Positions 1 through 59,003 of a stretch of DNA of 64,000 bases are shown here, in pieces. This stretch comes from a virus. Taxonomy: Duplodnaviria; Caudoviricetes. The stretch spans positions 192,001 to 256,000 of the IMG/VR virus record IMGVR_UViG_3300007171_000004; one strand, written 5' to 3'. How positions within the stretch are numbered: the first letter of the stretch is position 1; the number at the start of each line of letters is the position of its first letter. The notes beneath the pieces are model-generated. The model did not search any database. It saw only the letters and a program-made list of their open reading frames with translations, and had not been told where the DNA came from. A program made the position numbers and the translations under genes.

Positions 1-1407
1 TTCTCTTCTATTATCTTTTGATGCCCATACTAACATTCCATTACTATCAGAAGCAGTTGCAATGCCTCCTCCAATAGGTTCACCCATCATTACAGCAGGT
101 TCTAATATTCTTCCAACATTTCCAGCAGATGTATAGTTTAAATTAGCCATCTGTTGTGGTTGTTGAAGTTGAGGAGCTGCAGGTTGTCCTTGATTGATAG
201 GTCTTTGTTGTGCGGTTTGTCCAGTATCAACACCATCATCAATAATATCTTGCATTGTAGATTGTAAATCAGCCATAGACTTAGTGATTTTACCTACATG
301 TGCAAGATCGATGTTATCTTTCCTTGAGAACATATTCATCACAGCAACTTCCAAGAAATTCAGTGATAAATTAATCAAGTCTAAGATATTTAAGCCAGCT
401 CTTGGGTCGATTCCTAAAGCTTGCATGACAGCAGAAACAGTAGCATTTTGTCCTGCTCCTGGTTGTGCTAAGAGTTGTCCACCTACAAGAGTTCCAGCGC
501 TTTGTGCTAATCTGACTGCAGTATTAACAGTATGATTTGCTGTTTTAAGAGCTTGTTGATGTTCAGGAGATTCGTTTAAATGAAATGCTACTGCGATATT
601 TTTGTATAGTTCGTTAGCTTTCTTTTCTAATTGTCCAGCAGCTTGAAGAATTTCGTCTACATCGTAAATTTCTTCGATTTCACAGGATTCAAAAGCTCCA
701 TCGCCTACACAAGAGAGTTCAATAAATTTAACCCCATAGTTTTTTTCGTAGATGTGCTTTCCAGAATTAGGATGTTTCTTACCTTTCCACTTTTTAAGAC
801 AATCGCAGTAATCTTTTTCAGTGTAGGCTTTATTTGAACAATTAGAGCAGATACCGTATTCCACAGAAGCTCCCATAGAAACGTCATGGATTACTCCAGT
901 TCTAATATTTCTTGCAATATCTGGATAAGCTTCTTCATCTACGAAATAGGTACAGAAAACACAATTTTCTTTTTCGTCCCATTCTGCATATACAACCATA
1001 CCTTTAGCTTGTTCAATATCATCATTTTTATGGTTTGTATAGATTGGTACGCCTTCGAAAGTTTTATAAGAAGGGATTTTTTCGCCTTTAATTTCAACTT
1101 CTTTTAATAATTCTTCTTTACTAAAGTAATCGCCATTTGCATTTACTACATCTGCATCGATAGCTCTAGCACGAACCCAAAGAAGTTTTGCACCCTTTCT
1201 AGATTGCATTTCCTTAACGATATCGAAATCTTTATATTTTTTGAAAACATCATCAGGATTTGCATAGAGTGATTGAAGGCCAATTTTAGCAGCTTCTCTA
1301 AAATTTGTAGAAGCTGTTTTTAGAAGATGTTCTTTTACAAGTTCTCTATCATTAATATCTAGAAAACTCTCAATTGTAATTCTTCCACCTTTGGCAAACT
1401 TAAGCAT
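1..1407 (-). CDS. Prohead (capsid maturation) serine protease with C-terminal scaffold-like extension; runs off the left window edge (not in ORF track)
   Basis: Manual translation from ATG at 1407 stays open to base 1: MLKFAKGG...RAIDADVVNANGDYFSKEEL...YKTFEGVPIYTNHK...DVSMGASV...FIELSCVGDGAF. The NH, SMG and ELSxV motifs fit the HK97 gp4/assemblin-type protease. It lies directly downstream of the portal gene. Confidence 0.85.
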   Translation of the reverse strand, partial: MLKFAKGGRITIESFLDINDRELVKEHLLKTASTNFREAAKIGLQSLYANPDDVFKKYKDFDIVKEMQSRKGAKLLWVRARAIDADVVNANGDYFSKEELLKEVEIKGEKIPSYKTFEGVPIYTNHKNDDIEQAKGMVVYAEWDEKENCVFCTYFVDEEAYPDIARNIRTGVIHDVSMGASVEYGICSNCSNKAYTEKDYCDCLKKWKGKKHPNSGKHIYEKNYGVKFIELSCVGDGAFESCEIEEIYDVDEILQAAGQLEKKANELYKNIAVAFHLNESPEHQQALKTANHTVNTAVRLAQSAGTLVGGQLLAQPGAGQNATVSAVMQALGIDPRAGLNILDLINLSLNFLEVAVMNMFSRKDNIDLAHVGKITKSMADLQSTMQDIIDDGVDTGQTAQQRPINQGQPAAPQLQQPQQMANLNYTSAGNVGRILEPAVMMGEPIGGGIATASDSNGMLVWASKDNRRE

Positions 1408-1446: not shown

Positions 1447-1472
1447 GTTCTAGAATTTGCCTCTAAATTCCT
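1447..1472 (-). promoter_or_regulatory. SigH-type promoter candidate AGGA-N18-GAAC upstream of the prohead protease gene
   Basis: Minus strand acAGGAatttagaggcaaattctaGAAC, ending 40 nt before the ATG; fits the B. subtilis sigma-H consensus (AGGAWWW...GAAT). Confidence 0.6.
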
Positions 1473-1487
1473 GTTATTTGTACAGAT

Positions 1488-3893
1488 TTAAACAAATTCT
1501 TCTGTCATATTAGAGTTACCCAATTTTTTTCTAATAGCTTGGGAAATGACATTAATTACATCTTGTGAATGTTCTTTAAGTTCTTTATCGGTAAATCTTA
1601 ATACAGTCCATCCATTGGCAGAAAGTTCAATATCTCTTCTTTTATCCCTAGCAATTTTTTCAGGATTATTGTGCCAAATTTCTCCATCGGCTTCAATTGC
1701 AATGCCTAATTCTGGAATAGCAGCATCTAGTTGATAATCCATTGTAGGTCCAGCTAAATATTGTCCATAAATTGCAAAAGGAAGATTCATAGAAAGAAGC
1801 ATGCTGTAAAGTGATTTTTCTAGACTTGTGAACATTTGTGCTTGAGGTCTATTTAGTTTCTTTTTAGCATATCTGTATCTAATATTTTCATCTTCAGAAT
1901 TTTGCCAGGATGAGAAAACTTGATTTGCTTCATAATTAACTGGGAAAGAAAATTCTCCTCCAAATTCAGCAATTCTTAGGCTATTTCCAAAGCCATCATA
2001 TTCCTCTGGTAATGCTCCTAAGTTTCCTCTTCCTGTCACTGGTGTAATTGATTTAAGGAAAAGTTCATGAGCAACAGATTTAAATTTAACGGAAGCTAGT
2101 CTTTGATTAGAATCTTGTAAATGTCCATTAAGTTTGTCTTTGTAGATTTCATTAATAACATTTGAAGCTAATCTATATGTTTCTGTTTTAGTCTTAGCGG
2201 TAGGAGCTGGTCCCGGTGCTGGTGCTGGTGCTGGAGGAGGTGCAGGAGCTCCCATTGGTGGTGCTCCTATACCCATATCTGGAGCACCCATTCCCATACC
2301 AGGCTCAGGCATTGCTGGTCCACCGCCTGTAAATCCTTGTCCTGTCACTGGTCCTGAAGAGAATCCTGTAAGCATGTCTGTATTAGCAATATTAGGATTG
2401 TTTACAAAACCTGATCCTTGTTCAAATCTTAATCTTTCAATTTCCTGATCTGGGTCAAGTCCAAAAGATTCAATAAGAGTCATATTAGAAATAACTCCAT
2501 TTGAATTAGCAGTAACAAGCATTTGAAGCTTTCCTGTATCGTCTCTTAATTGAAGATCATCGAATTTAATTTTAGGATAGATAATTTCATCTTGTCCTCT
2601 TTCGCCTTCAACAACAAAACCATTCCAGATTGCCACTTGTTTGAAAAGTTGTTCTTCAATCCAGTGTGCAACTTCTCTTCGGAAAGTTTCAAGTCTTTGG
2701 GCCATAGCAAGAAGACCAACTTGAGCATTTCCATATGTAGGACCTTCACCATTAAGTAGAGCCTTGTTGAGCATAAGACCATCTAAAATTTCTTGGTCAA
2801 TTAATTCATATTCGTTAGTTAATTGAAGAACCTTGCCAGAAGCACCATAAAATTCAAAATCAAAAGCATGGTGAGTAACAAGTGTGAGGTTAGGGTCATT
2901 TGCAATTGTGGCTAATTCTTCCTGAACATTGTCAATATCTTCTTGTGATGCAGGTCTTTGATCATTACCTACCTTGACAATTTTAATAGGGAGAATATGT
3001 CTTTCAGCGACTAACCATTGTGATTGTCTTAATTTATCTTTATATGCTAATGTTGGGAATAATGGTCTAATCATAGGTGTGCCATAATCTTCCCAAGGGT
3101 TAGATCCATGTTTAAAGTGCTTGATAGAAATAGGGTTTAATTTAATTGGTTCTCCCCTAAGTATCATTTTCTTTACTGAATCTGGAATTTGATCATAATA
3201 TTCTCTTGGTTGTTTTTCTTGGACAATTCTAATTTCTTCTGCGGATGGTCTGTAAACATATTGTCCTTCTTGATCAATCATTCCGGGCATTTTCATTACA
3301 CTATCAGGATTTAAAATAGAGATAGATTTCCAAGTTGCGCCTTCATGTTGACATTCTTGGTTCTTCTTAGTATCCCAGTTTGAACCATGACAGTGAGGAC
3401 AATCAATTGAGGCTAAAACAAATACATCTCCAAGTAAATGATAAACCTTGGATATTTCTGGGAGCCACTTTTGGAAATTAAGTTTTTGAATGAGTTTCTC
3501 GAAATAATCTTTGACATACGAGGAAGAACATTCGAGTTTCCATCCAGAGAAAGGGTAGTTAGTGTAGAAATTGATACCAGCTGCAATTTTAGGTTCATTA
3601 TTTCTCCACCAGTTCGCCCATAAATAAACTTCTTTTCGTGCATTTGGAATTTGGAATGAAGTAGCAGTAAGGAATGGGGAATAAAAGTTAGGAGATGTTG
3701 TAATATTACCAGACATCTGTGAAAACTTAGTCATATTTGGAGAAACATTTGCTCCAAGAGATGATGCAGCTCTAGATGATGCATAGGCTCTATCAATATT
3801 AAAGCCTTCGGATCCTGTTACTCTTTCTCCGGTTACTGTTTGAGCTGCAGTTTTAAATACTGTTTGTAATGATGAAATGTTTTCTGTTGACAA
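1488..3893 (-). CDS. Portal protein with Pro-rich linker and C-terminal DUF559/Vsr-like endonuclease domain
   Basis: Portal-like N-terminal ~500 aa (WRNNEPKIAAGINFYTNYPF; WEDYGTPMIRPLFPTLAYKDKLRQ; ILDGLMLNKALLNGEG). C-terminal DAAIPELGIAIEADGEIWH...RDKRRDIELSANGWTVLRF matches the DUF559 pattern. Located next to the protease gene. Confidence 0.85.
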   Translation of the reverse strand: MSTENISSLQTVFKTAAQTVTGERVTGSEGFNIDRAYASSRAASSLGANVSPNMTKFSQMSGNITTSPNFYSPFLTATSFQIPNARKEVYLWANWWRNNEPKIAAGINFYTNYPFSGWKLECSSSYVKDYFEKLIQKLNFQKWLPEISKVYHLLGDVFVLASIDCPHCHGSNWDTKKNQECQHEGATWKSISILNPDSVMKMPGMIDQEGQYVYRPSAEEIRIVQEKQPREYYDQIPDSVKKMILRGEPIKLNPISIKHFKHGSNPWEDYGTPMIRPLFPTLAYKDKLRQSQWLVAERHILPIKIVKVGNDQRPASQEDIDNVQEELATIANDPNLTLVTHHAFDFEFYGASGKVLQLTNEYELIDQEILDGLMLNKALLNGEGPTYGNAQVGLLAMAQRLETFRREVAHWIEEQLFKQVAIWNGFVVEGERGQDEIIYPKIKFDDLQLRDDTGKLQMLVTANSNGVISNMTLIESFGLDPDQEIERLRFEQGSGFVNNPNIANTDMLTGFSSGPVTGQGFTGGGPAMPEPGMGMGAPDMGIGAPPMGAPAPPPAPAPAPGPAPTAKTKTETYRLASNVINEIYKDKLNGHLQDSNQRLASVKFKSVAHELFLKSITPVTGRGNLGALPEEYDGFGNSLRIAEFGGEFSFPVNYEANQVFSSWQNSEDENIRYRYAKKKLNRPQAQMFTSLEKSLYSMLLSMNLPFAIYGQYLAGPTMDYQLDAAIPELGIAIEADGEIWHNNPEKIARDKRRDIELSANGWTVLRFTDKELKEHSQDVINVISQAIRKKLGNSNMTEEFV

Positions 3894-3918
3894 TTTATTC
3901 TCCCGTTAATATTATACT

Positions 3919-4296
3919 TCAGTTTAATGTAATATTAGAAGGGAGATCTTGAAACATGTCAGCGCCTTTGCCAACGTTATATTGAGGTACGCCCCTAATA
4001 AGCATGTCTCCTCTAATATTCTCTGTACTACTCATAGATTGAAATACTGGATCATCTTCTCTTGTGTTTTTTAGTTGCTCTTCTAAAGTTAAAAACTCTG
4101 GAGAATCTTTTGATATTGATAATAAATCTAATAATTGATTTCTTTGTTGTTCAGATAATTTTCTGTATGCATCTAAACTAATTTGCATTTGATCTAATAA
4201 ATTTTTTACTTGAGGTAATAATTGTTCATCCTCTTGCAAATTAGGGGAAGAAATAATTCCTCCCCCAATAGAATTTTGTGCGATTCTATACCACAT
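3919..4296 (-). CDS. Hypothetical protein, probable virion-associated (starts MWYRIAQ)
   Basis: 125-aa ORF in the head module, coupled to the upstream gene (TAAATG). Confidence 0.65.
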   Translation of the reverse strand: MWYRIAQNSIGGGIISSPNLQEDEQLLPQVKNLLDQMQISLDAYRKLSEQQRNQLLDLLSISKDSPEFLTLEEQLKNTREDDPVFQSMSSTENIRGDMLIRGVPQYNVGKGADMFQDLPSNITLN

Positions 4297-5793
4297 TTAG
4301 TCTTCTCTTGAATCCTCTAAAAGGGAATCCAATCCTAGTTCGCTAGCAAAATGTTTCAAATCATCATCAGAATATTGATGTCCCCAATCAGCTTCTTCAG
4401 CTAAAAGTTCTTCAATAGTTTTTTCAATATCTTCGTTAGTTCTTTTGGATTCTAACTCTTCTTCTCTGGTAATTGGTTCTTTTTTTGCTGTTTTGTTAAG
4501 ATGTTGAGAAACTGTCATGTCATCTCCATCCCCAGCATCTTTGAGAATTTGTTCAATGTACCACTTAGGAGCATTTTGTTTCTTGAGAAGTTCTTCAGCA
4601 TATGTTTCGAATCTCTCGTCTCTTCTGGAAATTAAATTGTCAGATTCATTGAGATTTTCTTCAATTGTTGCTTCAGTGTCAAATTCATTGTGGGATTCTA
4701 CATCTCTCATAGAATCATGTTTGTTTGTTCTTGGTAATTGATCTTCAAGAACTTTATCTGTATGAGTTTGTGCAGTTTTGGTAGATTTCTCATCGTTTCT
4801 TCTACCTAAATCTGCTGGCTTGGCTTTCCCTAAAGATTCTTCAATAGATGTGAAATTATCTTTGTTTTTGTGGGATTTAGAAGCTTCAAATCTTGCTTCG
4901 TATCCAATTTCACCTTCAGTAATTTCATTTTCTCTATTACTGTCAGAAAGGTTTAAAAGATTCTTAGCATTGTCAGGATGTCTATGAACATTAAGTCTAT
5001 TTTCCATCTTGGCATGTGTATCAGCAGTAACTCTTAACCAATCTTGATATGCACATGTAACGGAACCATCTTTTGCAATTCTAGAATCAATGCAGTTTTC
5101 TCTACACTTGCTTGTTTCCATAGGTACTGCATGACCGAGTTCAACTTTACCCTTTGGACATAGGAGATATGGTTCATTTCCCTGAGTTGATAATGAGGTG
5201 TAAGCAAGTCTTGTAGATTTTGTAGGAGTAATGGCATCAAAAGCTAATTTAATAGTATCTTTAGCTTCTTCAATATTTGCTGAAAGAATTTGATCCTTTG
5301 CAATATTGGCAATCTTTTTCATTTCAAGGGATGAATCTGAAATGATATATTGAATTGCGTTAAGAGCTTCTAATTGATGATGTCCTGGAGAAGATTTTGC
5401 AATTTTAGATGCAATTCTTTCCATTTGTGCAGCTTCATCATCTTCCATGCTTGCTAAAGAAGCGTAAGCATGTCTCAGAGCTTTTCTATGTTCGGATAGT
5501 CTAAAAGCTGATAGATTGTTAAATAAATCCTGAAGATGGTTTATAGGATTATTACCACTCATGATTTTGATAACTCTTACTGGACCGCCTAAAGAATTGA
5601 AATGATTTACTGTTGGATCTTGACTATTGAAATCAGAACCTTCTAATAAATTAAAAGGATGTTCAATTTTCTTGTGTAATGCATCAACAGAATCTTTAAT
5701 AGCTTGAAGTAATCCGCTGCCAGAAATTAAATTCTTTGCTTTTTCTGGATCATGTGTGTGATATTTTGTTGTAACTTTAAATCCTTTAGCCAT
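4297..5793 (-). CDS. Hypothetical charged protein with Cys cluster, probable head-associated
   Basis: About 498 aa. ATG at 5793 overlaps the upstream stop (the track uses TTG at 5805). Contains CPKG...CRENC...CAY and several [KR]xA sites. Confidence 0.7.
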   Translation of the reverse strand: MAKGFKVTTKYHTHDPEKAKNLISGSGLLQAIKDSVDALHKKIEHPFNLLEGSDFNSQDPTVNHFNSLGGPVRVIKIMSGNNPINHLQDLFNNLSAFRLSEHRKALRHAYASLASMEDDEAAQMERIASKIAKSSPGHHQLEALNAIQYIISDSSLEMKKIANIAKDQILSANIEEAKDTIKLAFDAITPTKSTRLAYTSLSTQGNEPYLLCPKGKVELGHAVPMETSKCRENCIDSRIAKDGSVTCAYQDWLRVTADTHAKMENRLNVHRHPDNAKNLLNLSDSNRENEITEGEIGYEARFEASKSHKNKDNFTSIEESLGKAKPADLGRRNDEKSTKTAQTHTDKVLEDQLPRTNKHDSMRDVESHNEFDTEATIEENLNESDNLISRRDERFETYAEELLKKQNAPKWYIEQILKDAGDGDDMTVSQHLNKTAKKEPITREEELESKRTNEDIEKTIEELLAEEADWGHQYSDDDLKHFASELGLDSLLEDSRED

Positions 5794-6682
5794 TTTTGCC
5801 CCCAAGCCCTAAATTTTGAACTAACTCTAAATCATAATCTCTTGCTTTGAGAGCTTTTTTAATTAGTTCTAACTCTTTTTTAGCAAGATTCTTATCAACT
5901 GGTTCTTTTCCATCATTCCCAACAGTCTTTTTATCTGTATCTACTACTGACATAAGAAAGATTGCTCTATTAATAAGATCGATAGTCGAAATTTTGTTAT
6001 AATCTTGCTCTACATCATAAATTGTTTCTGCTGCAGTTCTTAAATTGACATCAGAAGAACTTTTGGTTTTTCTTTCTTTTTTCTTATTATAGTCTTTTAC
6101 AAGGTCAACAGCTTTTTCAATAGTTTCGTTATTCCAATATTTTTGCTTTGATAAATATCTAACAATATCAGATTTTTCAATCCCATGGTCTAATAACTTT
6201 CCAACCTTACCCATTAAAACTCTAAATGGATTGCCTCTAGTTTTTTTCTTCTTTTTAGGGGCTTGGGCAACTTTTAAATTAAATTTGACAGTTGCTTCTT
6301 TAGTATTATTTTCCATTGGATTTTCCTTAAAACCATCTAATCTATTTAATTGGCGATATAATCTCTGAGCTAATTCTTTTGCATTAGGATCTTTTTTGCC
6401 AGTAGCTGGATCTTTTGTTTCTCTTCTAGGATCATTCGCTAAGTCAATTGCTCTAATAATAATGCCTAATTTCTTTTTGACATTTTCATCTTGTACTTTG
6501 AGAATAAAATCTTCATAAACAGCTTTTAATTCTTTAATCTTTTCAGAATCAGCATTAATTGTTTCTTTTAAGAGTTTATTTAATTGATTTTTTGAAACTC
6601 TACTAGAATCGCCACCACCTAAGTGAATGTTATTAATACCATTTGCTGGATTTGAAGCTATACCTGCATTCTCAGAATACAT
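5786..6682 (-). CDS. Hypothetical Lys-rich protein, probable head-associated
   Basis: 298-aa ORF with KVAQAPKKKKKTRGNPFR; coupled to its neighbours. Confidence 0.7.
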   Translation of the reverse strand: MYSENAGIASNPANGINNIHLGGGDSSRVSKNQLNKLLKETINADSEKIKELKAVYEDFILKVQDENVKKKLGIIIRAIDLANDPRRETKDPATGKKDPNAKELAQRLYRQLNRLDGFKENPMENNTKEATVKFNLKVAQAPKKKKKTRGNPFRVLMGKVGKLLDHGIEKSDIVRYLSKQKYWNNETIEKAVDLVKDYNKKKERKTKSSSDVNLRTAAETIYDVEQDYNKISTIDLINRAIFLMSVVDTDKKTVGNDGKEPVDKNLAKKELELIKKALKARDYDLELVQNLGLGGKNG

Positions 6683-7507
6683 TTAGTCCTCTTTGTCAAA
6701 ATCAAGATTAACTCTATTATAAATTTGATTAATTGTTTGTGCGCTTAATTCAGCTCTAGATTCAAATTCTTCTCTAGCCTTCTTCTCTAAAGCTAACTTA
6801 GATTCTCTTCTTTGTGCAGCTGTTGCAACTCTTAAAGCTTCTCTTTCATCAAGTGCTTTAAGGTCTACAGCGCCAAAAGATGCATCATAAGCATAATCTG
6901 TAGAAGATCTAAGAATATTATGTCCTCTTGAATTAACAACATTGGATTTTCTAAGCTCATTCATCTTTGAAGATTCCCAAGATTGATGCTTGGATGCTCT
7001 AGCTTCTCTTTGTTGTTGTTGATCAACAATAGCTTGTTGTGAGGTAGCTTCTTGGCTTTGCTTGAAAGATTCTGCAATATCAATCATATCAGGATTGAAA
7101 ATCGATGCAGATCTAGATAACATAGCTGCCATATAATCTTCAGATGAGAATGCCTTCAATCCACTAGTTAATGTTCTAGCGTTATCACCTTCATCATAAG
7201 CATATGAGGATCTCTTGATTGTCTCAGCACTCAAACCAGCTGTTCTCTCAATCTCTGCAACTCTTTCTTCAAAAGATAAATCTCTCAATTCATTGTAGAG
7301 AGATGGTCCTTGAATTTTTTCCCAGCTGTTGTTCTTAAAACTGGCTTCTTTATTAAATCCAGTTTGCTTTGCAATCTTAGTTCTATTGTCCTGAGAATTT
7401 GCCTTTAATTCAGCATATGGGTCATCGTTCTCTGGAGTGCCAAAGAAACTCTTTTCCAAAATTGATGGAATCTGTTCGATTTGTGAAACTTTCTTGAATT
7501 TACTCAT
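6683..7507 (-). CDS. Hypothetical helical protein, probable head-associated
   Basis: 274-aa ORF with a coiled-coil-like C-terminal half. Confidence 0.7.
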   Translation of the reverse strand: MSKFKKVSQIEQIPSILEKSFFGTPENDDPYAELKANSQDNRTKIAKQTGFNKEASFKNNSWEKIQGPSLYNELRDLSFEERVAEIERTAGLSAETIKRSSYAYDEGDNARTLTSGLKAFSSEDYMAAMLSRSASIFNPDMIDIAESFKQSQEATSQQAIVDQQQQREARASKHQSWESSKMNELRKSNVVNSRGHNILRSSTDYAYDASFGAVDLKALDEREALRVATAAQRRESKLALEKKAREEFESRAELSAQTINQIYNRVNLDFDKED

Positions 7508-7540
7508 ATCTTTTCCCTATTAAGCCCTAAAAATACTCAA

Positions 7541-7563
7541 TCCCCCTGTTATTCACAGGGGGA
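7541..7563 (-). terminator. Hairpin, probable intrinsic terminator or RNA processing site
   Basis: tccccctgt-tattc-acaggggga, a 9-bp stem between the 7586 and 7507 ORFs; the U-tract is weak. Confidence 0.55.
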
Positions 7564-7585
7564 ATTATCTCGAAGGGTTTATAAT

Positions 7586-8494
7586 TTAGTCGTATTTCTT
7601 AGTGAATAACTCGTCAATCCACTCTTGGTCGCCGTAACCAAGTTCTTCCTTCCAATATCTCTTAAGTCTGTCATAGTCAGCATTTGTAAGAGTTGCGACC
7701 TTTACGAGGCCTGTAACTGCTGCCTTCTTGACATTACCTGTGAGTTCGGATGCCATAACATTCTTGATTTCAGTAACTTCATTGCTCTCTGTGTGAACAG
7801 GAGTTCCAAGCATTGCATCGATATACTCTTGTGGGAATCCAGCTGCTTGAGCCTTCTTGATGAATGCAGTCTTTGCTGCAGAATTAGCTTCAGAAACCTT
7901 TACAAAGGTAGCTTCAGGAGCTGCAACCTTGACATTCTTCTTTGCTGCATTTTGAGCTTCTACAATCTTTTCAATCTTGTTAGCTAAACGAACTCTGCGC
8001 TCATGTCTAGCTGCAAGGATTGCATTTACCAATGGTTGATCACCAGCTGCAATAGCTGACTCAACTGCTTCAGCAGAAAGCTGACTTGGGTGATTGAAAT
8101 GAATTTGTCTATTTGCCTTCACGTCTTTACCTCTAACAACCTTTTCATGTTCTGTTTCATTCATAGCTTCTGTATCATCATCAGCTTCGCCGTCTTCGTC
8201 TTCAGTTTCTTCAACTTCTTCTTCGACTACAGCGCCATCTTCGTCTTCATCATCATCGTCGTCTTCTTCATCATCAGAATCTTCAGCAAGAGCTTTGAGA
8301 GCTGCTAAAACAGCATCTTCATCGCCTTCTGCAGTCACATGATTCTTGAAATGCTCAACGAGTTCTTTTGGCATCTTTGGGCTTTTCTTCTTGGCTTCAA
8401 CAATGTTTAAGCCTTCCCAGTTGATACCTTGATACACGAGTTCAGAGTCAAGTTCACCCTCTTGAACACGGTTTGGAAAAATTCTATCTGCCAT
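7586..8494 (-). CDS. Acidic scaffold/core-like hypothetical protein
   Basis: 302 aa with a long D/E tract (EDSDDEEDDDDDEDEDG...) and Ala/Lys-rich helices; has its own promoter candidate. Confidence 0.65.
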   Translation of the reverse strand: MADRIFPNRVQEGELDSELVYQGINWEGLNIVEAKKKSPKMPKELVEHFKNHVTAEGDEDAVLAALKALAEDSDDEEDDDDDEDEDGAVVEEEVEETEDEDGEADDDTEAMNETEHEKVVRGKDVKANRQIHFNHPSQLSAEAVESAIAAGDQPLVNAILAARHERRVRLANKIEKIVEAQNAAKKNVKVAAPEATFVKVSEANSAAKTAFIKKAQAAGFPQEYIDAMLGTPVHTESNEVTEIKNVMASELTGNVKKAAVTGLVKVATLTNADYDRLKRYWKEELGYGDQEWIDELFTKKYD

Positions 8495-8530
8495 ATTTTT
8501 TAGTTCCTTCGAGAAGAGTACAGAAAAAAA

Positions 8531-8556
8531 GTTCTTTATTAAAGCTTAATTTTCCT
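8531..8556 (-). promoter_or_regulatory. SigH-type promoter candidate AGGA-N18-GAAC
   Basis: Minus strand gcAGGAaaattaagctttaataaaGAAC, ending 37 nt before ATG 8494. Confidence 0.6.
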
Positions 8557-8587
8557 GCTAAATTAATATATTTAATTATAGTTTTTA

Positions 8588-8962
8588 TTACTTAGTTTCC
8601 TTGAAAACTTGTAATTCTCTATCCTTATACCAAATTCTGTCACCAATTTTAATGTCATTATCCTTAAAAGCATCTTTTCTAGCTTCTACTACATAACGAA
8701 CTTTGCTTGATTTTGGAGACTTCATTGTGCTGTCATTTTTCTTTAAATCAACAAAATCTACAATTCTTGAATTTTCATCTAAGAAAGCTAATGAAAGATC
8801 AAAGCTTACATTCTGATTCCAAAAACTATATTTATCTGGTGTGTTAAAAATAAAAATAACAGCTTCATCATCTTCAAGAGGTTCAGCAAACATCAGACCT
8901 TTTGTTCTTTTTTGGTCTGTGTCTGCAACGAATCTTACTTTAAAGACGAAATCGGGGGTCAT
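8588..8962 (-). CDS. DUF192 family protein
   Basis: VADTDQKRTKGLMF..L....AVIFIF......FWNQNV.FDLSLAFLD...I...YVVEA......IKIGD matches the DUF192 pattern. Confidence 0.85.
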   Translation of the reverse strand: MTPDFVFKVRFVADTDQKRTKGLMFAEPLEDDEAVIFIFNTPDKYSFWNQNVSFDLSLAFLDENSRIVDFVDLKKNDSTMKSPKSSKVRYVVEARKDAFKDNDIKIGDRIWYKDRELQVFKETK

Positions 8963-9462
8963 ATCTTTTTAAATTTAGACGAAGAAGCAGTTTTAACAGA
9001 AGCGGTCTTAACTGATTTTGCTTCTGTGTAATCAAACTTAGTCTTCTTTCTTGCCTTTCTAAATTCATTAACTGGATTATTTAAATAATGATCTCTTAAT
9101 GCAATTCTAGCCTTATCAGTAAGAGTTACGCTTCTTCCGTAACCTTGTAATAATCCAGCAGTTTTTAAATATAAGAGTTCATTATCAGAAATATCTCCAG
9201 GAACGCTACAAAACTTATCACCATTTCTAGTGTTTAAAGCTAATCCTGCAGCAGTTGTAATAGTATCTACATTCTTGTCAATCATCTCAAGAAGTTGAAT
9301 ATCTCTTTCAGAAACTCTTGCGGATGTCTTCTTATTATCATGCTCAGTTACACCTAATAATTGCAACTGAAGACCTGACATACCTGAATCGCTAAGACCT
9401 TTAAAATCAAAAAGTTCTTCATGTAAATCTAACTTATGTACTGGCTTAACTGGTAATGGCAT
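8959..9462 (-). CDS. Hypothetical protein with possible winged-helix-like segment; C-terminal VKTASVKTASS
   Basis: 167-aa ORF with SD AGGAG; ELLYLKTAGLLQGYGRSVTLTDKAR resembles a wHTH wing. Confidence 0.65.
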   Translation of the reverse strand: MPLPVKPVHKLDLHEELFDFKGLSDSGMSGLQLQLLGVTEHDNKKTSARVSERDIQLLEMIDKNVDTITTAAGLALNTRNGDKFCSVPGDISDNELLYLKTAGLLQGYGRSVTLTDKARIALRDHYLNNPVNEFRKARKKTKFDYTEAKSVKTASVKTASSSKFKKI

Positions 9463-9471
9463 ATAATTCTC

Positions 9472-9915
9472 CTATCTTAATGGACCGTATTTAATTCCTG
9501 GGTTATTTGCTTTTTCTTTTTCTATATTCTCGTCTAAAAAATCATCTAATTCTCTTAAACCTGGATTAGACATTGTAAATCCATCTTCGTAAATTAAAGC
9601 TGGACCGGGTACATCAGCTTCTCCATGTAACTGCTCTTCAATACCCTTAATTCCTTCATCTCCATCAGGCAAATCGTTGTATGTAGGAATTTTGTCTCTA
9701 TAATGTTTGTTTCTTAAAAAATCTGCATGACTGAAATCGTATGCAACATCTTTCCATTTTGTCATATGCCCAGAAAGATCATATGTAGTGTCGCTAATTG
9801 ATGGAATAATTTGAGCGATTTTAATATTAATAAGATCTGCAGAGTTAAATAGGCCGAGCTTGTCATAATAGTCGGCTTTTTTAATTAGTTTTAAAATCTT
9901 TTCAGTTGCTTTCAT
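9472..9915 (-). CDS. Hypothetical protein with N-terminal LxxxAxxxDxxGxFxxAD helix motif
   Basis: 147-aa ORF starting MKATEKILKLIKKADYYDKLGLFNSADLINIKIAQ. Confidence 0.7.
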   Translation of the reverse strand: MKATEKILKLIKKADYYDKLGLFNSADLINIKIAQIIPSISDTTYDLSGHMTKWKDVAYDFSHADFLRNKHYRDKIPTYNDLPDGDEGIKGIEEQLHGEADVPGPALIYEDGFTMSNPGLRELDDFLDENIEKEKANNPGIKYGPLR

Positions 9916-9939
9916 ATCTTAATCTATTGGCTACAAACT

Positions 9940-11034
9940 TTAAATTATTCCTTTGATATGATTTTCAAATGTTTTCAAAGAGCTTATGATTGTTTGATCC
10001 ATATTCATATAAGCATAATTAGCAAGTCTTCCACCAAAAATATATTTATCTTTATCAATCATCTTTAAATATTTTCTAAAGATTTCATTATTTTCAGAAG
10101 AATTAATTGGATAATATGGATCATTTAATTTGTTATATTCTTCAGGGAATTCATATGTAATAATAGATTCTTTAATTGGTCTATAATTGAAATATTTATG
10201 TTCTATGATTCTAGTCCAAGGTATGCTTTTGCTTGGAAAATTAACTTGTGCAATTCCCTGATAATCTTCGTGAACTAAATGATGGGAAAATTTAAGAGAT
10301 CTATATTCCAAATCTCCATGAATGTAACCAAAAAATCTATCAATAGGACCTGTATAGACAACATATTTTGCCATCTTATCAAAATCATCTCTAGAGGCAA
10401 AGTAATCTGTATTTAACTCTAGTGGAATATCACCTAAGATTTTTTTAAATAAATCTTCATATCCATCTTTAGGAACACCAGAATAAAGCTTTTCATGGTA
10501 ATCATCGTTGAAATTAAATCTTATCGGCAATCTATTGAATACAGAAGAATCTATTGTCTTAGCATCTCTTCCCCATTGCTTTTCTGTATAGCCTTTAATT
10601 AATAACTCGTAAATATGCTGTCCAACAGAATCTATAGCAAGTTCTTCAAAATTTATGGGGTTTTTAAATTTATAGAAAGATTGGAATAAATCTTTAACTT
10701 CGGAAATAGATGAAAGTTCTGGATAGATTTGATATATTGTTTGAAGATTTATAGGAAATGAATAATATTGTCCATTTGTAAACGATTTAACTTTGTGCCT
10801 GTAATGATTGAATTCTGAAAAGTTATTTACATATTCCCAGATTTTTTCGTTATTAGTGTTGAAAATATGAGGCCCGTATTCATGAACATTGATACCATTA
10901 TAATTTTTACTGTAACAATTTCCACCAATATGATTTCTTTTATCAATTACTAAGACTTTTTTGCCCAGATTATGAGCTTCTCTTGCAAATACTGACCCAA
11001 AAAATCCAGAACCAACAACTAAATAATCATACAT
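9940..11034 (-). CDS. glf: UDP-galactopyranose mutase
   Basis: FAD-binding VVGSGFFG, IDKRNHIGGNCY, HEYGPHIF, TRIIEHKYF, PYYP and GGRLANYAYMNMDQ motifs; 364 aa. Confidence 0.95.
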   Translation of the reverse strand: MYDYLVVGSGFFGSVFAREAHNLGKKVLVIDKRNHIGGNCYSKNYNGINVHEYGPHIFNTNNEKIWEYVNNFSEFNHYRHKVKSFTNGQYYSFPINLQTIYQIYPELSSISEVKDLFQSFYKFKNPINFEELAIDSVGQHIYELLIKGYTEKQWGRDAKTIDSSVFNRLPIRFNFNDDYHEKLYSGVPKDGYEDLFKKILGDIPLELNTDYFASRDDFDKMAKYVVYTGPIDRFFGYIHGDLEYRSLKFSHHLVHEDYQGIAQVNFPSKSIPWTRIIEHKYFNYRPIKESIITYEFPEEYNKLNDPYYPINSSENNEIFRKYLKMIDKDKYIFGGRLANYAYMNMDQTIISSLKTFENHIKGII

Positions 11035-11050
11035 AATAATCTTTTACAAT

Positions 11051-12025
11051 TTACCAACCAGGAGTGAATAATGGATCTGTAACTAAATTATGAACTGGAG
11101 TGATTTTTTCATCATCGTCATCATTATCTTTTAAAAAACTATCCCAAGACGAAAATGGTTCCTTGTGTAAATTACTCTCATAAGATTCTTCAAGATTTAA
11201 TTCTTTTTTTTGAAGTTGAGATTTATCTTTTTCAATATGATTTTTATAAGGAGCATCACCACCAGGAACATCAAAAGGCAAAGCTGGTGTGTTCCAAAAT
11301 TCACTATAACCACTTCTATTTTGCTTAGGTAAAACTTCCAAATACTCATCTAAAGTTAAATCTGCAGGGCCTAATAGCGGAACAGGATTAGGAAAGTGAG
11401 TTTTTCTATATGTTTCAAATTCGGATTGTTCTTCAGAATCGTCAACAGTTACTCTATCTCTTCTTTTAATTGGATAGGCAGCGACAATCTTATCTAAATC
11501 TCTAATAGCCCAATGAATTCTCTCAGGCTTAATTAAATCTGGAATATTATCAATTAAGTTAGATTTAAATCCATCTTCGTATTTTCTCTTAGAACTCAAT
11601 AACTCTTCAATTCCAACAACATGCTCATTTTTTGGTTTGTAATGCTCTTTGATAAATTTGACAGAGTTATTTCTTAATCTATTTCCAGCATCTTGAAGAA
11701 ATTTTTCGTGCTTTTCAATTTCTTCTTTAACCTTTTTCTTATATCTTTCTCTAGGAGTTAATTCAAAAGGGATAGTGTCATCTTCGGAGAATCTATGGAA
11801 AATTTCAAGGCGAACTTCAATGTTTCTCTCTTCAGAAGGGTCAACAGGATTATGGGTTCTTGCTAAAAAATGCTCAAATGAAATATCCTCAATAAAAGCA
11901 TTAATATCCCAACCTCCAGGATTATAACCACCTTTGCCTATAGGACTTCCACCTGGCGAATAAGGAGACGCTGTTCCACCACCACCAATACCGCCAAACT
12001 GAGCAATTTTAATAGATTTTTCCAT
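11051..12025 (-). CDS. Hypothetical protein with Gly/Pro-rich N-terminus after KIAQ
   Basis: 324-aa ORF starting MEKSIKIAQFGGIGGGGTASPYSPGG. Confidence 0.7.
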   Translation of the reverse strand: MEKSIKIAQFGGIGGGGTASPYSPGGSPIGKGGYNPGGWDINAFIEDISFEHFLARTHNPVDPSEERNIEVRLEIFHRFSEDDTIPFELTPRERYKKKVKEEIEKHEKFLQDAGNRLRNNSVKFIKEHYKPKNEHVVGIEELLSSKRKYEDGFKSNLIDNIPDLIKPERIHWAIRDLDKIVAAYPIKRRDRVTVDDSEEQSEFETYRKTHFPNPVPLLGPADLTLDEYLEVLPKQNRSGYSEFWNTPALPFDVPGGDAPYKNHIEKDKSQLQKKELNLEESYESNLHKEPFSSWDSFLKDNDDDDEKITPVHNLVTDPLFTPGW

Positions 12026-12028
12026 ATA

Positions 12029-13642
12029 TTAAGTCCTTGAAGTTGGATAAGAACCAGAGTCTAATGTAAATGTTTTGATAACAGTTGTATTATCACTTGC
12101 ATATAAAGATAATGTTGTTCCTGATATAACCCACTTGCCAAAACCATAAGCTCTAGCAGCATTCAACGCATCACCTACAGTATGGGCAGTGTTAGATGTA
12201 GGAACAGATTGGGACATGTCAATTTGTGTGTAAGCTAAATTAACAGTAAGAACAGCTCCATTAGTACCCGCTGCTCCTCTTACGTTAATTGTTACATCAG
12301 AAGAGCCTGAAGCAAAAGCAGCATTCGGCACGTCTAATCTATAAATTCCAGGCATTGTTGTTGAATTAATTTCTGCAAAACCACCTGAAGTCCAAGCTCC
12401 TGTTGCTGTCTGACTTACTAACGAAATCTGAACTGGAGTACTTCTATTTCTTACATAGTAGGCTTGCAGTCCTGATGTATTGAATGTTAGACCTTTCACA
12501 CCTAGGTACAGTTCGATGGATTGTGAGGTGCTACCGGGGGAGATTGTGATAGAAGATGAATTACGCTCCGTTGGAAGATAGGAGCCTATACCAGATAAAT
12601 TTCTATAAGTAGAAAAACCAATATCTGGATTTGCGCTTGTCCATGTGACACCATAAATGTCAGATCCAGGGGCATTAGTCATAGTACCTGTATTTATATT
12701 TGGACTAACTTGTTCTGGAGAAAAGATCATAATTGGATTAAATCCTAAAACTGTTTCATATCCATGAGAAATTCCATAAACGCCTACAGATTTTGAATTA
12801 GCTCCAATGGTTACATTAGAATATGCAGTTTGACATCCTATTACACGATTATAATCATCATCAATGTATGCTGTACCAGTACCAGAAATCCCAACACCAT
12901 TAACGTTTGCCACAAGAGTATTACGTATTTTTAACGGAAAAGATGCATCACCAATTGTTGCAGCTAAAGGACAGCGATAAAAAGTACAATTTATAACTAG
13001 GCCTTGAATATTACGGATTAGAGAAACGGTATTTCCAATGACCAAGCAGTCAGACATTTCAAATGTATCTGTAACATTTACTCCGTTAATCCAAGGAGTA
13101 TACGTATGACCAACAAAAACACATTTGCGTATCTTCAAATTACTGGCAGTAGCTGCGGTCGTAGTCCAATAAAAACTGGAACCGTTGACACCTGCGTAAT
13201 TTACATTTTGTTGGAAAATACATCTGGTCCAGGTAAAATTATTGCAAGTTAAACAATTGATAATATTATTATTGCCTCCACCGCCTCCCTGAAAATATAA
13301 TGAATCAAAACTCAAAAATGCTTTTGATGTTGCGTTTAATAAATTATTTGTATTTGCTGGAGAAGAATCCTCATTTGAATAATTTGAAATTTTTACAAAT
13401 CCTGGAGATATGCCAGTAAATTGATTACATAAAATGTCACCAATTATTGAAGTAGTACTAGAATATGTACCACCAATTGTAATATTTTCAGTATAAACGC
13501 CGGGAGCTATATATAAAGTGTCTCCTGAATTTATTCCAGTAGCACCTAAGGCTTTTTGTATTGTTCGCCAAGCTAAAGAAACACTTTGCCCTAAACCAGT
13601 GTTGCCATCATTTCCATCAGGTCGCACATAATAAGTTGCCAT
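12029..13642 (-). CDS. Right-handed beta-helix (pectin-lyase-like) protein, putative tail spike/fibre or head decoration
   Basis: N-terminal TYYVRPDGNDGNTG...AWRTIQKAL...GDTLYIAPGVYTE (DUF1565-like), Asn/Cys ladder repeats, Thr/Ser/Gly-rich C-terminus. Confidence 0.75.
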   Translation of the reverse strand: MATYYVRPDGNDGNTGLGQSVSLAWRTIQKALGATGINSGDTLYIAPGVYTENITIGGTYSSTTSIIGDILCNQFTGISPGFVKISNYSNEDSSPANTNNLLNATSKAFLSFDSLYFQGGGGGNNNIINCLTCNNFTWTRCIFQQNVNYAGVNGSSFYWTTTAATASNLKIRKCVFVGHTYTPWINGVNVTDTFEMSDCLVIGNTVSLIRNIQGLVINCTFYRCPLAATIGDASFPLKIRNTLVANVNGVGISGTGTAYIDDDYNRVIGCQTAYSNVTIGANSKSVGVYGISHGYETVLGFNPIMIFSPEQVSPNINTGTMTNAPGSDIYGVTWTSANPDIGFSTYRNLSGIGSYLPTERNSSSITISPGSTSQSIELYLGVKGLTFNTSGLQAYYVRNRSTPVQISLVSQTATGAWTSGGFAEINSTTMPGIYRLDVPNAAFASGSSDVTINVRGAAGTNGAVLTVNLAYTQIDMSQSVPTSNTAHTVGDALNAARAYGFGKWVISGTTLSLYASDNTTVIKTFTLDSGSYPTSRT

Positions 13643-13676
13643 TATTTAATTATCCACAAAATAATTTTCATATCTA

Positions 13677-16600
13677 TCAAATTCTTCTACCTAATGAAAT
13701 TGTCCTAGAACCTGGTAGTCTTTGCATGATTTTACTTGTTAAACATTCATAAGATACAGCAGCTATGGCATCACAAATATCATCTTTATATCCTTGCAAC
13801 GCTGAAATATAATATCTAGAACCTTTCCATTTTTTTTGTAGGAATTGAAATTGTATTTTTGCTTCCTGAATTTCATTAAGATCAAATTCTCTTCCAGTGG
13901 CATCTTTAAACTTACCTCCTGAAAGATCATAAATATCAATCCTATCCTCTCTCAATAATTGGGTAAGTTCTGTGTAAATCTTTTCCTTATATTCCTTATT
14001 AAATTGACGTTCTAATGCATTAATACCAGCACTTTGTAATTTAATAAGAGATGATTGAGAATGCCATTGATCAAAAGTCACTTGTTTAAACTTGAACCTT
14101 TTGTGTAATTCAATTATATATTCTTCAACTTCTCTCTCAGACACAGGTTGGTTTTTAATCATAGGATTCCAAAAATGAATATGATCAATTACAACTCTTC
14201 TTAGAGGTCTATTATCAGGTCCAATTGAGCCATAAATAGGTTCAGAGTGCGCTACAGCAAGAGCATAATAATCAGATGTTCGAGCTGGATCTAAATGACA
14301 ATAATAATCAACTAAAGGCTGACCCTGCTCTCTTCGTCCCACCATTGAAGAAGAATTGAAAAATCTATCAATAGCATCAGGGGTGAACATTGGATCTGAT
14401 GAAGAAGCTCCGAATTCCGCCCCATATTGCATTTGATGTTCTACAGGGTTTTTCTTTTTCTGATCATCTAGCCAAGCTTTATCAATATTAGGATTTGTTA
14501 ACCAAGTAGGTAATCTCATCACTAGAGTTGTTGGATCATCTTGCCTGTTCTCATGTAAATCATATAACAATCCAATAGGGCCTTTAGGGTTAGAAAGCAT
14601 CATCATCTTTCCATCCTTACCAAAAGTAGCTAGAGAAGGTTTCAAGTCATCATAAAGAGAGTAGTCAACACCAGAATCAGGATTGTCTCCGGCCATAGCA
14701 GCTACCTCGTCCATAATAATACACCAACAAGTAAGACCAACAAGACCTGAAGCATTACTAGAACCACAACGCAAAACAAGAGATCCAGGAAATAAATTAA
14801 TACCAGCTACTTCTCTTCTTTCATTTTCTTTTCGGTCATGGTCTGTATAGAATCTCATTTCAAGTTCAGTATCTTTTCCAATAAAGGGTTGAAAATATGG
14901 AGATGCTAAAACAGTCTGCTTAATTTTAGAGAAGATAGCTTTTTTAGCCTGTTCTTCGTTCCTAGCAACATTAAGTAGAACAATCTCGTCAAATTCCATC
15001 AAACCATATCTAGATTGAGGATGATCCATAGAAATTAAACGATATAATTCATAAAGAGCCATGGCAGAAACAAGGAACGAATTATGAGTTGGAATCATAC
15101 TCTTTCCAATTAAATACATATGGGATGGATGTTCTACCTGAATACATTGCATGCCCGGATTAGGAACAGGATTGCATTCTTTAATAAAAACTCTATATTT
15201 ATCAGATTTATCGATTGTTGGTTTATTATCTAATATTGCTTGCTTTCTTGGTAAATTAAATACTTTATCACCAGGGCGAACAGAGTAAGTAATTCTCCAA
15301 CGATCTGAGGTTTTTCTTCCATAAAGTGTTGCATCAGATTTCTTAATACTTGCCTTAAAACCTAACCCACAAACAAGTTCATAATAATCATAAGCTAGAG
15401 TTTCATTAGTGTTGCAAAATTCTACAGTATATTTTTTAGGATCTACATAACCATCAGTATCATTCAAACCTCTTAAAAGCTCTAATCTTTGTTCAATAGA
15501 TGCTTGCTTGTAGATTAATGGAATATGCTTGTTTTTAAATACGCCAATTTCTTTAATCAAATGTAAGAATATTTTATGTGTTTCTGTGTTAGGATGAATA
15601 TAATGTGATTTTTCAATTGTAGAACAGTGTTTAATTGTATGATTGCAATTAGCTTCAATATAATCAAAAATTTCCATATCAATTCCAGTTAATTGATAAG
15701 AAGATTTACAGCCATCTCCTAGCCATGCTCCAAGAAGATAGGGATGAATTAAAAGATCTTGCTCTGAAAATTGAAGGGGTTTTGTAATCTCTATAGCATG
15801 ATTGTACTCTACAGTAAATTTCTCTCTTCTTTCAGTTTGTGAGCCTTTTTTGAGCATCTGTCTAGGCTTACCATATGTTAAAGATTCATAGATTTGTTGA
15901 GTTGTAAATACTTGAGGAACAGGGTCTTTAGAATATTTACCTCTAGATGCGTTTTTTCTTTGAGCTTTCGTGAGAGTCACCCATTCATGATTTTCACCAG
16001 CGACAATTCTATCTCCATTGCTAAATACTAATTCATACGCTTGCTCATCATAATCTATATCAGATTTTGCAATGACTTTAGTAGCTGTTCCATCTGGTGC
16101 AAAAACATAATCTCCTACCTTGACTTCACCCATTGTTGACCACCCAGATGTCGTATATAATGGGGTGTCTAACAGTAACAATTTTCCCGAACGGCGACCA
16201 AGCACTAAAACTAGTTCTTGAAATTTGTATCTTTTAGTACATTTGTTAAGAACCTGCAATCTGAGTTTAGGATCGAACTCTTCAGAATATAGCAGATCTT
16301 TTTCGCTTTGGAAGTTATCTGTAATAGGTCTTGCTTCGAGTTCAAGTACCTGTCTTTCTGAGTCTGGGTTTGTGGCTTCTTCTTTTGCAGCTTTATATCT
16401 TGTTTCTCTAGCGGATTCTGAAAAATTTGAACATGTTAAGCAGGGTGAATTTACTACAGAGAAAATCGTTTTAAGATTCCTGCCTTCGTTATAAAAAGTT
16501 TCAAATTTAAGCTCATTGTCTTTAATATATTCCCAGACACAACCTTTACAGCCATTTCTATCCTCTGGTAAAATATCATCAATTTGCAGAGTAGTGTTGC

Positions 16601-16892
16601 CTTCTTGTCCCATATAGAAGCATTTGAGAATTAATCTTTGCCATGGGTAGGGTTTTAAGTTACAGTAATAAGGATGTTCAATAAATGTTACAATATCTAC
16701 AATTTGATCGGGGTTAAATCGGTCTTTGGGTGGAATCGCTGGTGGTAGTGATTCTGATCTAGTTGCTGGCAATACTTCATCTAAAAAATCGTATCCTTGA
16801 TCTTTAAGAAAGTTTGTAGCGTTAGCAGCATTTTGCAAGAGTTGAGTTTTGAAATCTTGCTGGTTATTTTTATCCTTAACTGTTTTTCGCAT
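13677..16892 (-). CDS. terL: Terminase large subunit with intein
   Basis: Walker A GRRSGK|S is interrupted by an intein. Walker B CIIMDE, MMMLSNP coupling motif, nuclease HLDPA...DDICDA. Confidence 0.93.
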   Translation of the reverse strand: MRKTVKDKNNQQDFKTQLLQNAANATNFLKDQGYDFLDEVLPATRSESLPPAIPPKDRFNPDQIVDIVTFIEHPYYCNLKPYPWQRLILKCFYMGQEGNTTLQIDDILPEDRNGCKGCVWEYIKDNELKFETFYNEGRNLKTIFSVVNSPCLTCSNFSESARETRYKAAKEEATNPDSERQVLELEARPITDNFQSEKDLLYSEEFDPKLRLQVLNKCTKRYKFQELVLVLGRRSGKLLLLDTPLYTTSGWSTMGEVKVGDYVFAPDGTATKVIAKSDIDYDEQAYELVFSNGDRIVAGENHEWVTLTKAQRKNASRGKYSKDPVPQVFTTQQIYESLTYGKPRQMLKKGSQTERREKFTVEYNHAIEITKPLQFSEQDLLIHPYLLGAWLGDGCKSSYQLTGIDMEIFDYIEANCNHTIKHCSTIEKSHYIHPNTETHKIFLHLIKEIGVFKNKHIPLIYKQASIEQRLELLRGLNDTDGYVDPKKYTVEFCNTNETLAYDYYELVCGLGFKASIKKSDATLYGRKTSDRWRITYSVRPGDKVFNLPRKQAILDNKPTIDKSDKYRVFIKECNPVPNPGMQCIQVEHPSHMYLIGKSMIPTHNSFLVSAMALYELYRLISMDHPQSRYGLMEFDEIVLLNVARNEEQAKKAIFSKIKQTVLASPYFQPFIGKDTELEMRFYTDHDRKENERREVAGINLFPGSLVLRCGSSNASGLVGLTCWCIIMDEVAAMAGDNPDSGVDYSLYDDLKPSLATFGKDGKMMMLSNPKGPIGLLYDLHENRQDDPTTLVMRLPTWLTNPNIDKAWLDDQKKKNPVEHQMQYGAEFGASSSDPMFTPDAIDRFFNSSSMVGRREQGQPLVDYYCHLDPARTSDYYALAVAHSEPIYGSIGPDNRPLRRVVIDHIHFWNPMIKNQPVSEREVEEYIIELHKRFKFKQVTFDQWHSQSSLIKLQSAGINALERQFNKEYKEKIYTELTQLLREDRIDIYDLSGGKFKDATGREFDLNEIQEAKIQFQFLQKKWKGSRYYISALQGYKDDICDAIAAVSYECLTSKIMQRLPGSRTISLGRRI
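13681..13706 (-). promoter_or_regulatory. SigH-type promoter candidate AGGA-N18-GAAT
   Basis: Minus strand AGGAcaatttcattaggtagaaGAAT at the 3' end of terL, ending 39 nt before ATG 13642. Confidence 0.5.
15081..16181 (-). mobile_element. Class 3 intein with LAGLIDADG homing endonuclease (367 aa) in the terminase P-loop
   Basis: Block A LLLLDTPLYTTSGWSTMGEVKVGD; block B AGENHEW; LAGLIDADG motifs YLLGAWLGDG and LLRGLNDTDG; block F MQCIQV; block G IPTHN followed by Ser. Confidence 0.92.
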
Positions 16893-53087: not shown

Positions 53088-53113
53088 AGGAAAAGAAAGT
53101 CTGTAAGTTGTAA
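53088..53113 (+). promoter_or_regulatory. SigH-type promoter candidate AGGA-N18-GTAA
   Basis: AGGAaaagaaagtctgtaagttGTAA, 67 nt upstream of the 773-aa ORF. Confidence 0.4.
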
Positions 53114-58959: not shown

Positions 58960-59003
58960 AGGAATTTATGTTGACACTCCTGTAAAATAACTTCAGGAGT
59001 GTC
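58960..59003 (+). promoter_or_regulatory. AGGA-N18-GTAA promoter candidate overlapping a 10-bp hairpin that covers the downstream SD
   Basis: gacactcctg-N11-caggagtgtc (58973-59003); its 3' arm contains AGGAG 11 nt before ATG 59011. Confidence 0.5.

Follow-up and report, generated by a model that had tools for sequence, protein, structure and literature searches.

We analysed a 64,000-nucleotide (nt) stretch of viral DNA, hereafter the window, which corresponds to bases 192001-256000 of a contig of 300,536 bp (33% G+C, estimated to be 84% complete) from an uncultured freshwater giant phage. The head genes of this phage and of its relatives are preceded by a two-box element, AGG-N19-GAA, which very probably defines a class of promoters. 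The window also encodes a sigma factor that resembles SigH of the Bacillota, and we regard as the best explanation of the whole, and a reasonably probable one, that the elements are SigH-type promoters matched to this phage-encoded sigma. Metagenomes from 12 studies contained near-identical DNA; they came from estuary, freshwater, reservoir, sediment and aquaculture samples, and runs with small shares were left out as evidence of habitat.

Sites in this genome

Three AGGA-N18-GAAY sites had been proposed by the original prediction, which was made from the window alone, and all three were confirmed. Their cores, on the minus strand at window positions 1447-1472, 8531-8556 and 13681-13706, lie 40, 37 and 39 nt before the start codons at 1407, 8494 and 13642, with C, C and T as the base after GAA. 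P2 (1447-1474, in the form R-M-AGG-W-N17-AGAA) lies between the portal stop codon and a protease-fusion gene; P3 (8531-8558, of the same form) precedes an acidic, scaffold-like gene; and the candidate promoter P4 (13681-13706, AGG-N19-GAA with CT instead of R-M in front) precedes a 537-amino-acid (aa) gene that follows the large terminase gene. A fourth site on the same strand, P1 (AGGA-N18-GAAY, genome 189119-189144, outside the window), ends 55 nt before a 551-aa gene. The targets in this genome are accordingly the protease gene, the scaffold-like gene, the 537-aa gene behind the terminase and a unit whose last gene encodes the major head protein, and three of the four sites share the extended form R-C-AGGA-W-W-W ... 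W-AGAA-Y.

Base composition predicts 16.9 AGGA-N18-GAAY sites for the whole genome and 16 are present, so the total shows no excess. The excess is one of position: four sites end 37-56 nt before a start on their own strand, as against 0.195 expected (Poisson P = 5e-5), and other spacings give one or two start-proximal sites each. P3 is the best weight-matrix match in the genome (20.6 bits), and P4 scores below 9 bits. Motif discovery from this genome alone was not decisive: repeated early hairpins and A/T runs dominated the de novo k-mer and pair enrichment, and AGGA-N17-AGAA came 19th among the 4268 pairs tested, its p of 1e-5 losing significance on correction for multiple testing.

Further candidates are found before PhoH (genome 68502) and, as possible leaderless sites, at genome 22222 and 278334. 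The PhoH site is kept as a candidate only, as the motif also precedes PhoH in one complete relative (G004, below) and does not in the other (G003). Two plus-strand AGGA-N18-GTAA sites, which the original prediction had counted in the same class, fall outside it: neither has the AGAA box, the one at window 53088-53113 finds no support in relatives, and the one at 58960-58985 overlaps a terminator-like hairpin.

Conservation in relatives

The three window sites are real, and the case for them is compelling once relatives are added. The comparison drew on 69 distinct related loci (1.17 Mb) from viral metagenome contigs, retrieved by their portal protein (50-93% identity), and on two complete relatives, G004 (379 kb, 41% G+C) and G003 (347 kb). 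AGG-N19-GAA, which is equivalent to AGGW-N18-GAA, is present in the gap between portal and protease in 57 of the 60 loci that contain the portal end. The spacers vary widely from locus to locus while AGG and GAA stay constant, and most of these sites directly follow a conserved terminator hairpin. Counted by target, the motif is found in the 160 nt before the protease ortholog in 42 of 43 loci (26 distinct sequences), at the orthologous position before the scaffold-like gene in all 27 loci with an aligned N-terminus (13 distinct sequences), and upstream of the first gene after the terminase in 46 of 56; a fourth group of sites is found where the 551-aa gene begins. Seven operon-internal genes have the motif upstream in 0-4 of 25-58 loci. 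Gene order is conserved, and the site at window 13681 is the positional equivalent of the post-terminase promoter, which in the nearest subclade lies within the 3' end of the terminase gene, as it does here.

The spacing between the two boxes is strictly fixed. Across the 69 loci there are 112 unique intergenic AGG-Nx-GAA sites at N19, compared with 12-42 at the twelve other spacings from N13 to N25, and N19 is the sole enriched intergenic spacing in that range; when only sites 15-90 nt before a same-strand start are counted, the contrast is 70 against 0-9. Nearly all intergenic AGG-N19-GAA occurrences (201 of 203) are in the orientation of the coding strand. The complete relatives behave likewise, with 41 intergenic N19 sites in G004 (4-10 at other spacings) and 17 in G003 (about 3 at other spacings). 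An unbiased scan of G004 agrees: among all trinucleotide pairs at spacings of 10-25 nt, AGG-N19-GAA ranks second (z = 16), behind a repeated element.

Several positions outside the selection criteria are also conserved, namely a purine at the second and A or C at the first position before AGG, A or T after it, and A before GAA (0.97). The base after GAA, averaged over position groups, is A in 0.34, C in 0.29, G in 0.28 and T in 0.10 of cases. Since this T is not conserved and the A before GAA is, the -10 box is best written AGAA rather than GAAT. The match to the SigH consensus claimed by the original prediction therefore holds for AGGA, for GAA and for the 18-nt spacing, and does not hold for the final T.

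Outside the clade, the first 50 kb of Bacillus phage G contain no AGG-N19-GAA in upstream regions. An independent phage record with a SigH-like gene, MT835476.1, showed no enrichment and was set aside, as its mixed strands and 47% G+C look bacterial. Two transposase genes of the IS200/IS605 OrfB (TnpB) type start 10-11 nt behind AGG-N19-GAA sites, one in G004 (144287-145456; phrog_506, E 2e-127) and one in G003 (near 4766), and to judge by that position such inserted elements would be expressed from the phage's own type of promoter.

Start-codon distances and possible leaderless messages

The distance from GAA to the start codon, taken as the first start codon of a long open frame, shows two sharp peaks, and does so at N19 only. 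The peak at 35-45 nt contains 63 sites, 81% of them with a Shine-Dalgarno-like sequence; the peak at 9-12 nt contains 50 unique sites, of which 86% have ATG as the start codon and 14% a Shine-Dalgarno-like sequence. The composition of the shorter class suggests leaderless mRNAs that begin at the A of the ATG. On this reading the two boxes would lie at about -34 to -32 (AGG) and -12 to -10 (GAA) from the predicted transcription start, which is the geometry of the sigma-70 family. With the fixed spacing, the strict orientation and the position after terminators, these two sharp distances give the element the behaviour of a promoter.

The leaderless subclass (ATG 10-11 nt after GAA, no ribosome site) also occurs about 7.5 kb upstream of the portal in related loci (for example L010:2309), at 183284 and 343529 of G004, and at genome 278334 of the present phage; several of the genes concerned encode proteins that start with MWY(R/K). 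A separate sequence, TGTACAA, was also noted across the genome (for example at window 1479-1485 and at genome 185520, 67535, 249376 and 64486). It is rarer in the genome than expected (39 against 69), but 14 copies lie within 100 nt of a same-strand start, where 1.8 would be expected; where an ATG has no Shine-Dalgarno sequence, copies peak 9-10 nt ahead of it (6-9 nt in G003). Read as TG plus TACAAT, the heptamer may serve as -10 box for a second class of leaderless promoters, a reading that does not explain why in relatives TGTACAA also stands directly before the terminator hairpin that follows the portal gene.

Assembled metatranscriptome contigs from four runs provide a weak hint of a promoter at P1. 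The P1 unit is the best-covered part; its first gene (genome 187409-189064) has depths of 18-40 in three of the four runs. In the coordinates of locus L105 these contigs stop at 2617-2625, either inside the motif (2620-2644) or a few bases past its downstream end, and the bins upstream have depths of 0-3. A separate bin of very high depth, window 1838-2504 (L105:7338-8004), falls in the C-terminal, nuclease-domain third of the portal gene; its summed contig depths of 1025 and 703 in two runs, beside 0-6 in neighbouring bins, probably reflect cross-mapping from other organisms.

The SigH-like sigma factor

The sigma gene that the original prediction had called SigH-like (window 22261-22992, minus strand) encodes 243 aa from an ATG at 22992 behind a GGAGG ribosome site, with the Pfam domains Sigma70_r2 and r4_2, and our searches agree with that description. 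Its best family matches are five SigH models (NCBIfam TIGR02859 and NF006145-NF006148; E 1e-24 to 1e-33), with scores of 86-113 bits, all below the cut-offs that the curators set at 208-414 and about half of what is required. The general sigma-70 superfamily model gives 57 bits, and the next specific family, SigF/SigG, 40 bits. Three other members of the clade likewise match the SigH models best and likewise remain below the cut-offs, so the protein is properly called SigH-like and not a SigH equivalog. The best match among solved structures is 3mzy, 'RNA polymerase sigma-H factor' (E 1e-15), and the nearest cellular relatives are in the Bacillota.

For comparison we used a bona fide SigH (398 bits on NF006147) from L106, a record labelled Listeria phage that is probably host DNA, to which the window protein is 31% identical (E 5e-31). 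The helix of region 4.2, K-x-V/I-D-N-A-L-x-R-I/V-R/K-K-K, is invariant in six sequences of the phage clade and in this SigH; region 2.4 is largely common to both, apart from a short insertion on the phage side. All five large relatives have the gene in synteny, at 46-75% identity. No close homolog was found in a cultured phage, and a search of 50,697 phage records gave no match to SPO1-like phages at E 1e-3.

Points against and alternative readings

A number of observations weigh against the pairing of SigH-type promoters with this sigma. Clear sites of the class number only three or four in this genome, and P4 overlaps the final codons of the terminase gene, so that part of its conservation may stem from constraint on the protein. 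The weight matrix derived from the relatives finds 4 matches here at the top threshold against 2.2 in shuffles, which is not significant, such a matrix being too unspecific in DNA of 33% G+C for the scan to be informative. The -10 box departs from the GAAT of SigH promoters, and the sigma falls short of the cut-off of every SigH model. At P1 the RNA contigs run 7-15 nt past the predicted start on its upstream side, and a further contig spans P3. Finally, the genes behind the motif in G004 are a mixed set and not virion genes alone, including PhoH, an RNA ligase, a CCA-adding enzyme (tRNA nucleotidyltransferase), a baseplate-hub-like protein and a transposase. The original prediction had a SigH-type sigma driving late transcription; the promoter-like motif, its geometry and the affinities of the sigma fit that proposal, whereas 'late' derives from the function of the head genes only and does not extend to these other targets. 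The class is best called phage-specific and non-early.

The strongest competing account, which we consider unlikely, accepts the motif as a promoter but has it read by a neighbouring ECF-like sigma (window 18506-19057, minus strand, 183 aa) or by a third sigma that relatives carry. Five of five relatives have the ECF-like gene 3-4 kb away from the SigH-like one, and it thus co-occurs with the motif equally well, so that co-occurrence does not single out the SigH-like protein, and the relatives carry one or two further sigma genes. Nor can a second promoter class be assigned to the ECF-like sigma, since a search for another spacing-specific motif gave only repeated hairpins and the conserved terminator. 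We infer the choice among these candidates from the proteins and the boxes. The ECF-like protein does not resemble SigH significantly, its match stopping short of region 4, and it lacks a region 4.2 helix of the SigH type, which the SigH-like protein retains exactly. Promoters of ECF sigmas typically have AAC at -35 and CGT at -10, which the motif does not resemble, while AGG and GAA at this spacing are the published SigH pattern; and in this 84%-complete genome a third sigma was not found.

It is considerably less probable that the SigH of the host reads the motif and that the phage sigma has some other role, for example on host genes. Such an arrangement would suit a geometry that is the same as in cellular SigH promoters, the position of the sigma's nearest cellular relatives in the Bacillota, and Bacillus phage G as the source of the nearest cultured portal. 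No host could be named, however, from a portal-based search of 185,579 species genomes, which returned no related sequence, and the -10 box deviates from GAAT. Reliance of the head genes on a host stationary-phase sigma would also be less economical than use of a sigma that all the large relatives conserve next to the head module.

Slightly less credible still is the notion that AGG-N19-GAA is the binding site of a regulator, or a signal for RNA processing or translation. The contig that crosses P3 would be at home in this reading, and our transcription start is itself a prediction. A pair of short boxes always 19 nt apart, with spacers that are A/T-rich and otherwise free, however, fits the geometry of the sigma-70 family, and the element follows terminators; in the leaderless class, where the ATG is 10-11 nt after GAA and has no Shine-Dalgarno sequence, an RNA signal would be left outside the mRNA. 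That the three sites are chance matches, as their unexceptional overall number and the non-significant matrix scan in this genome might suggest, is barely conceivable in view of their positional excess and already contradicted by their orthology to sites conserved in dozens of diverged relatives.

Proposed mechanism

The SigH-like sigma and the promoters proposed for it can be placed in a rough scheme of transcription. Searches for the beta and beta-prime families of RNA polymerase found none in this genome, where very divergent ones could be missed, and the beta family was not found in four relatives. The right end of the genome (283000-291000) is the early region, in which sigma-A-type promoters (TTGaca-N17-TGnTATAAT) behind repeated G/C hairpins separate small genes; these promoters form a class distinct from the AGG-N19-GAA elements before the head genes. 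A scan for the sigma-70 consensus around the sigma genes gave no clear excess (106 against 85 +/- 9).

A phage without an RNA polymerase of its own would thus have its early genes at the right end read by the host holoenzyme from sigma-A-type promoters. The SigH-like sigma would be made next, bind the host core polymerase and steer it to the motif, where transcription would restart after terminators. The promoters would have the consensus R-M-AGG-W, a 17-nt A/T-rich spacer and AGAA, with AGG and GAA at the distances from the start given above; in relatives, the same class would also drive leaderless mRNAs with the AUG 10-11 nt after GAA. The timing in this scheme is something we infer from the functions of the head genes.

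A bolder version, possible though in our view doubtful as a whole, describes an orthogonal transcription system shared by giant phages of fresh water and estuaries that form one clade with a global spread. A sigma derived from SigH and AGG-N19-AGAA promoters would make messages of two kinds, and in the leaderless kind the AUG would be at +1. The host would be a non-spore-former, perhaps without a SigH, and the sigma would be a private switch rather than a borrowed one.

Genes of the head module

The genes of the window's first 53 kb are on the minus strand, and their order from high to low coordinates includes the SigH-like sigma, the ECF-like sigma, the large terminase, the block of head genes, the portal and the protease fusion. 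The large terminase gene (13677-16892), whose 3' end is overlapped by P4, encodes 1071 aa, compared with about 704 aa in relatives, whose proteins align as two blocks on either side of a LAGLIDADG domain at residues 467-528; the insertion looks like an intein or an in-frame homing-endonuclease insertion. The six relatives included in the synteny comparison lack the 537-aa gene behind P4 (12029-13642), which lies between the terminase and the following conserved head gene and looks, by this pattern, like a lineage-specific insertion. The scaffold-like open frame behind P3 (7586-8494), whose position in the head module is conserved, had no family match in profile searches of the window proteins.

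The portal gene (1488-3893) closes the transcription unit that precedes P2. Its product has a C-terminal DUF559/restriction-endonuclease-like domain (residues 688-787), and the fusion of portal and nuclease is conserved, most relatives aligning across the full 801 aa. The protease-fusion gene behind P2 begins at 1407 and extends past the start of the window (its 5' part being window 1-1407) to the coordinate given as genome 189217, for a total of 1396 aa; it matches phrog_18299, head maturation protease, with E 2e-17. Beyond the window it is followed by the 551-aa gene, a 222-aa gene and the gene for the major head protein (genome 185824-186678; phrog_2522, E 3e-67), which is the third of the P1 unit. 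An atlas look-up of the 551-aa protein gave no usable lead.

Significance

Phage-encoded sigma factors are already known, and what is new here is a SigH-like variant with a matching class of promoters. To our knowledge, the cognate promoters of phage sigmas have been defined for very few phages, all of them cultured. The present class was defined purely by comparison across a large uncultured clade, and its geometry is precise; a start site can be predicted for it, a leaderless subclass recognized and a candidate sigma named. It offers a sigma-promoter pair that can be tested directly, by in vitro transcription or by orthogonal expression, it enables the annotation of operons and of timing in hundreds of metagenomic giant-phage genomes, and it adds the SigH branch to the cellular sigma lineages that phages have taken up.

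Comparison with known systems

The closest parallel is with the SigH promoters of the Bacillota. In the transcriptome of Sporomusa, as in Bacillus subtilis and Clostridioides difficile, SigH motifs consist of AGGA at -35 and GAAT at -10 with a spacer of 17-18 nt (PMC12456013). The phage sites have the same cores, AGG(A) and GAA, and their 18 nt from AGGW to GAA are within that range; they also share a purine two bases before AGG and an A/T-rich spacer. All sites in this genome have AGGA in full, the fourth base being A or T in relatives, and the spacing is exactly 18 nt, whereas the phage box at -10 is AGAA with no conserved T. The sigma is like cellular SigH in matching the SigH models best and in keeping the region 4.2 helix; it differs in its identity to true SigH and in the short region 2.4 insertion described above, and on its best models it scores 105-113 bits against cut-offs of 208-295, too low for an equivalog. 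A further difference is that here the factor is encoded by a phage and its proposed targets are head genes and other genes of that phage, not stationary-phase or sporulation genes.

Bacillus phage SPO1 provides the classic case of a phage sigma cascade acting on the host core polymerase: it has no polymerase of its own, and sigma-70-family factors redirect the host enzyme from sigma-A-type early promoters to promoters specific to the phage (PMC13401047). Like the SPO1 cascade, in which gp28 serves the middle genes and gp34 with gp33 the late ones, the present system has a phage-encoded sigma-70-family protein with regions 2 and 4, a genome in which no beta or beta-prime family was found, and separate promoter classes for early and presumably later genes. 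In a published tree, SPO1 gp28 groups with sigD, sigH and sigI. The search of phage records described above gave no sequence match to SPO1-like phages. The two systems also differ at -10, where AGAA here stands against a T-rich box for gp28; at -35 they are alike, the box of gp28 being AGGAGA.

Sporulation-like sigmas of Bacillus phages are likewise phage-borne homologs of alternative sigma factors of the Bacillota; they are SigF/SigG-like, appear to be non-essential and have been discussed as acting on host sporulation genes (Schwartz et al., 2022). The homolog described here differs in being SigH-like, in lying beside the head module and in matching promoters of the phage's own genes.

By its portal, the nearest cultured relative is Bacillus phage G (Donellivirus; L125), with 30% identity over 81% of the queried portal fragment. 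Phage G is also a jumbo phage with a major head protein of similar size and with sigma genes in or near its head module, but its two annotated sigma genes (L125 3213-3839 and 45667-46287, one of them directly after terminase and peptidase genes) are unrelated to the SigH-like sigma; a comparative paper describes the phage G group as being without sigma factors (PMC7824862). Our literature search, the coverage of which was incomplete, found no paper on a SigH-like phage sigma together with its promoters. A 2026 review notes that jumbo phages without a polymerase often encode sigma homologs that likely use phage-specific promoters (PMC13282480), and the SigH-like sigma and AGG-N19-GAA elements of this clade would be such a pair.

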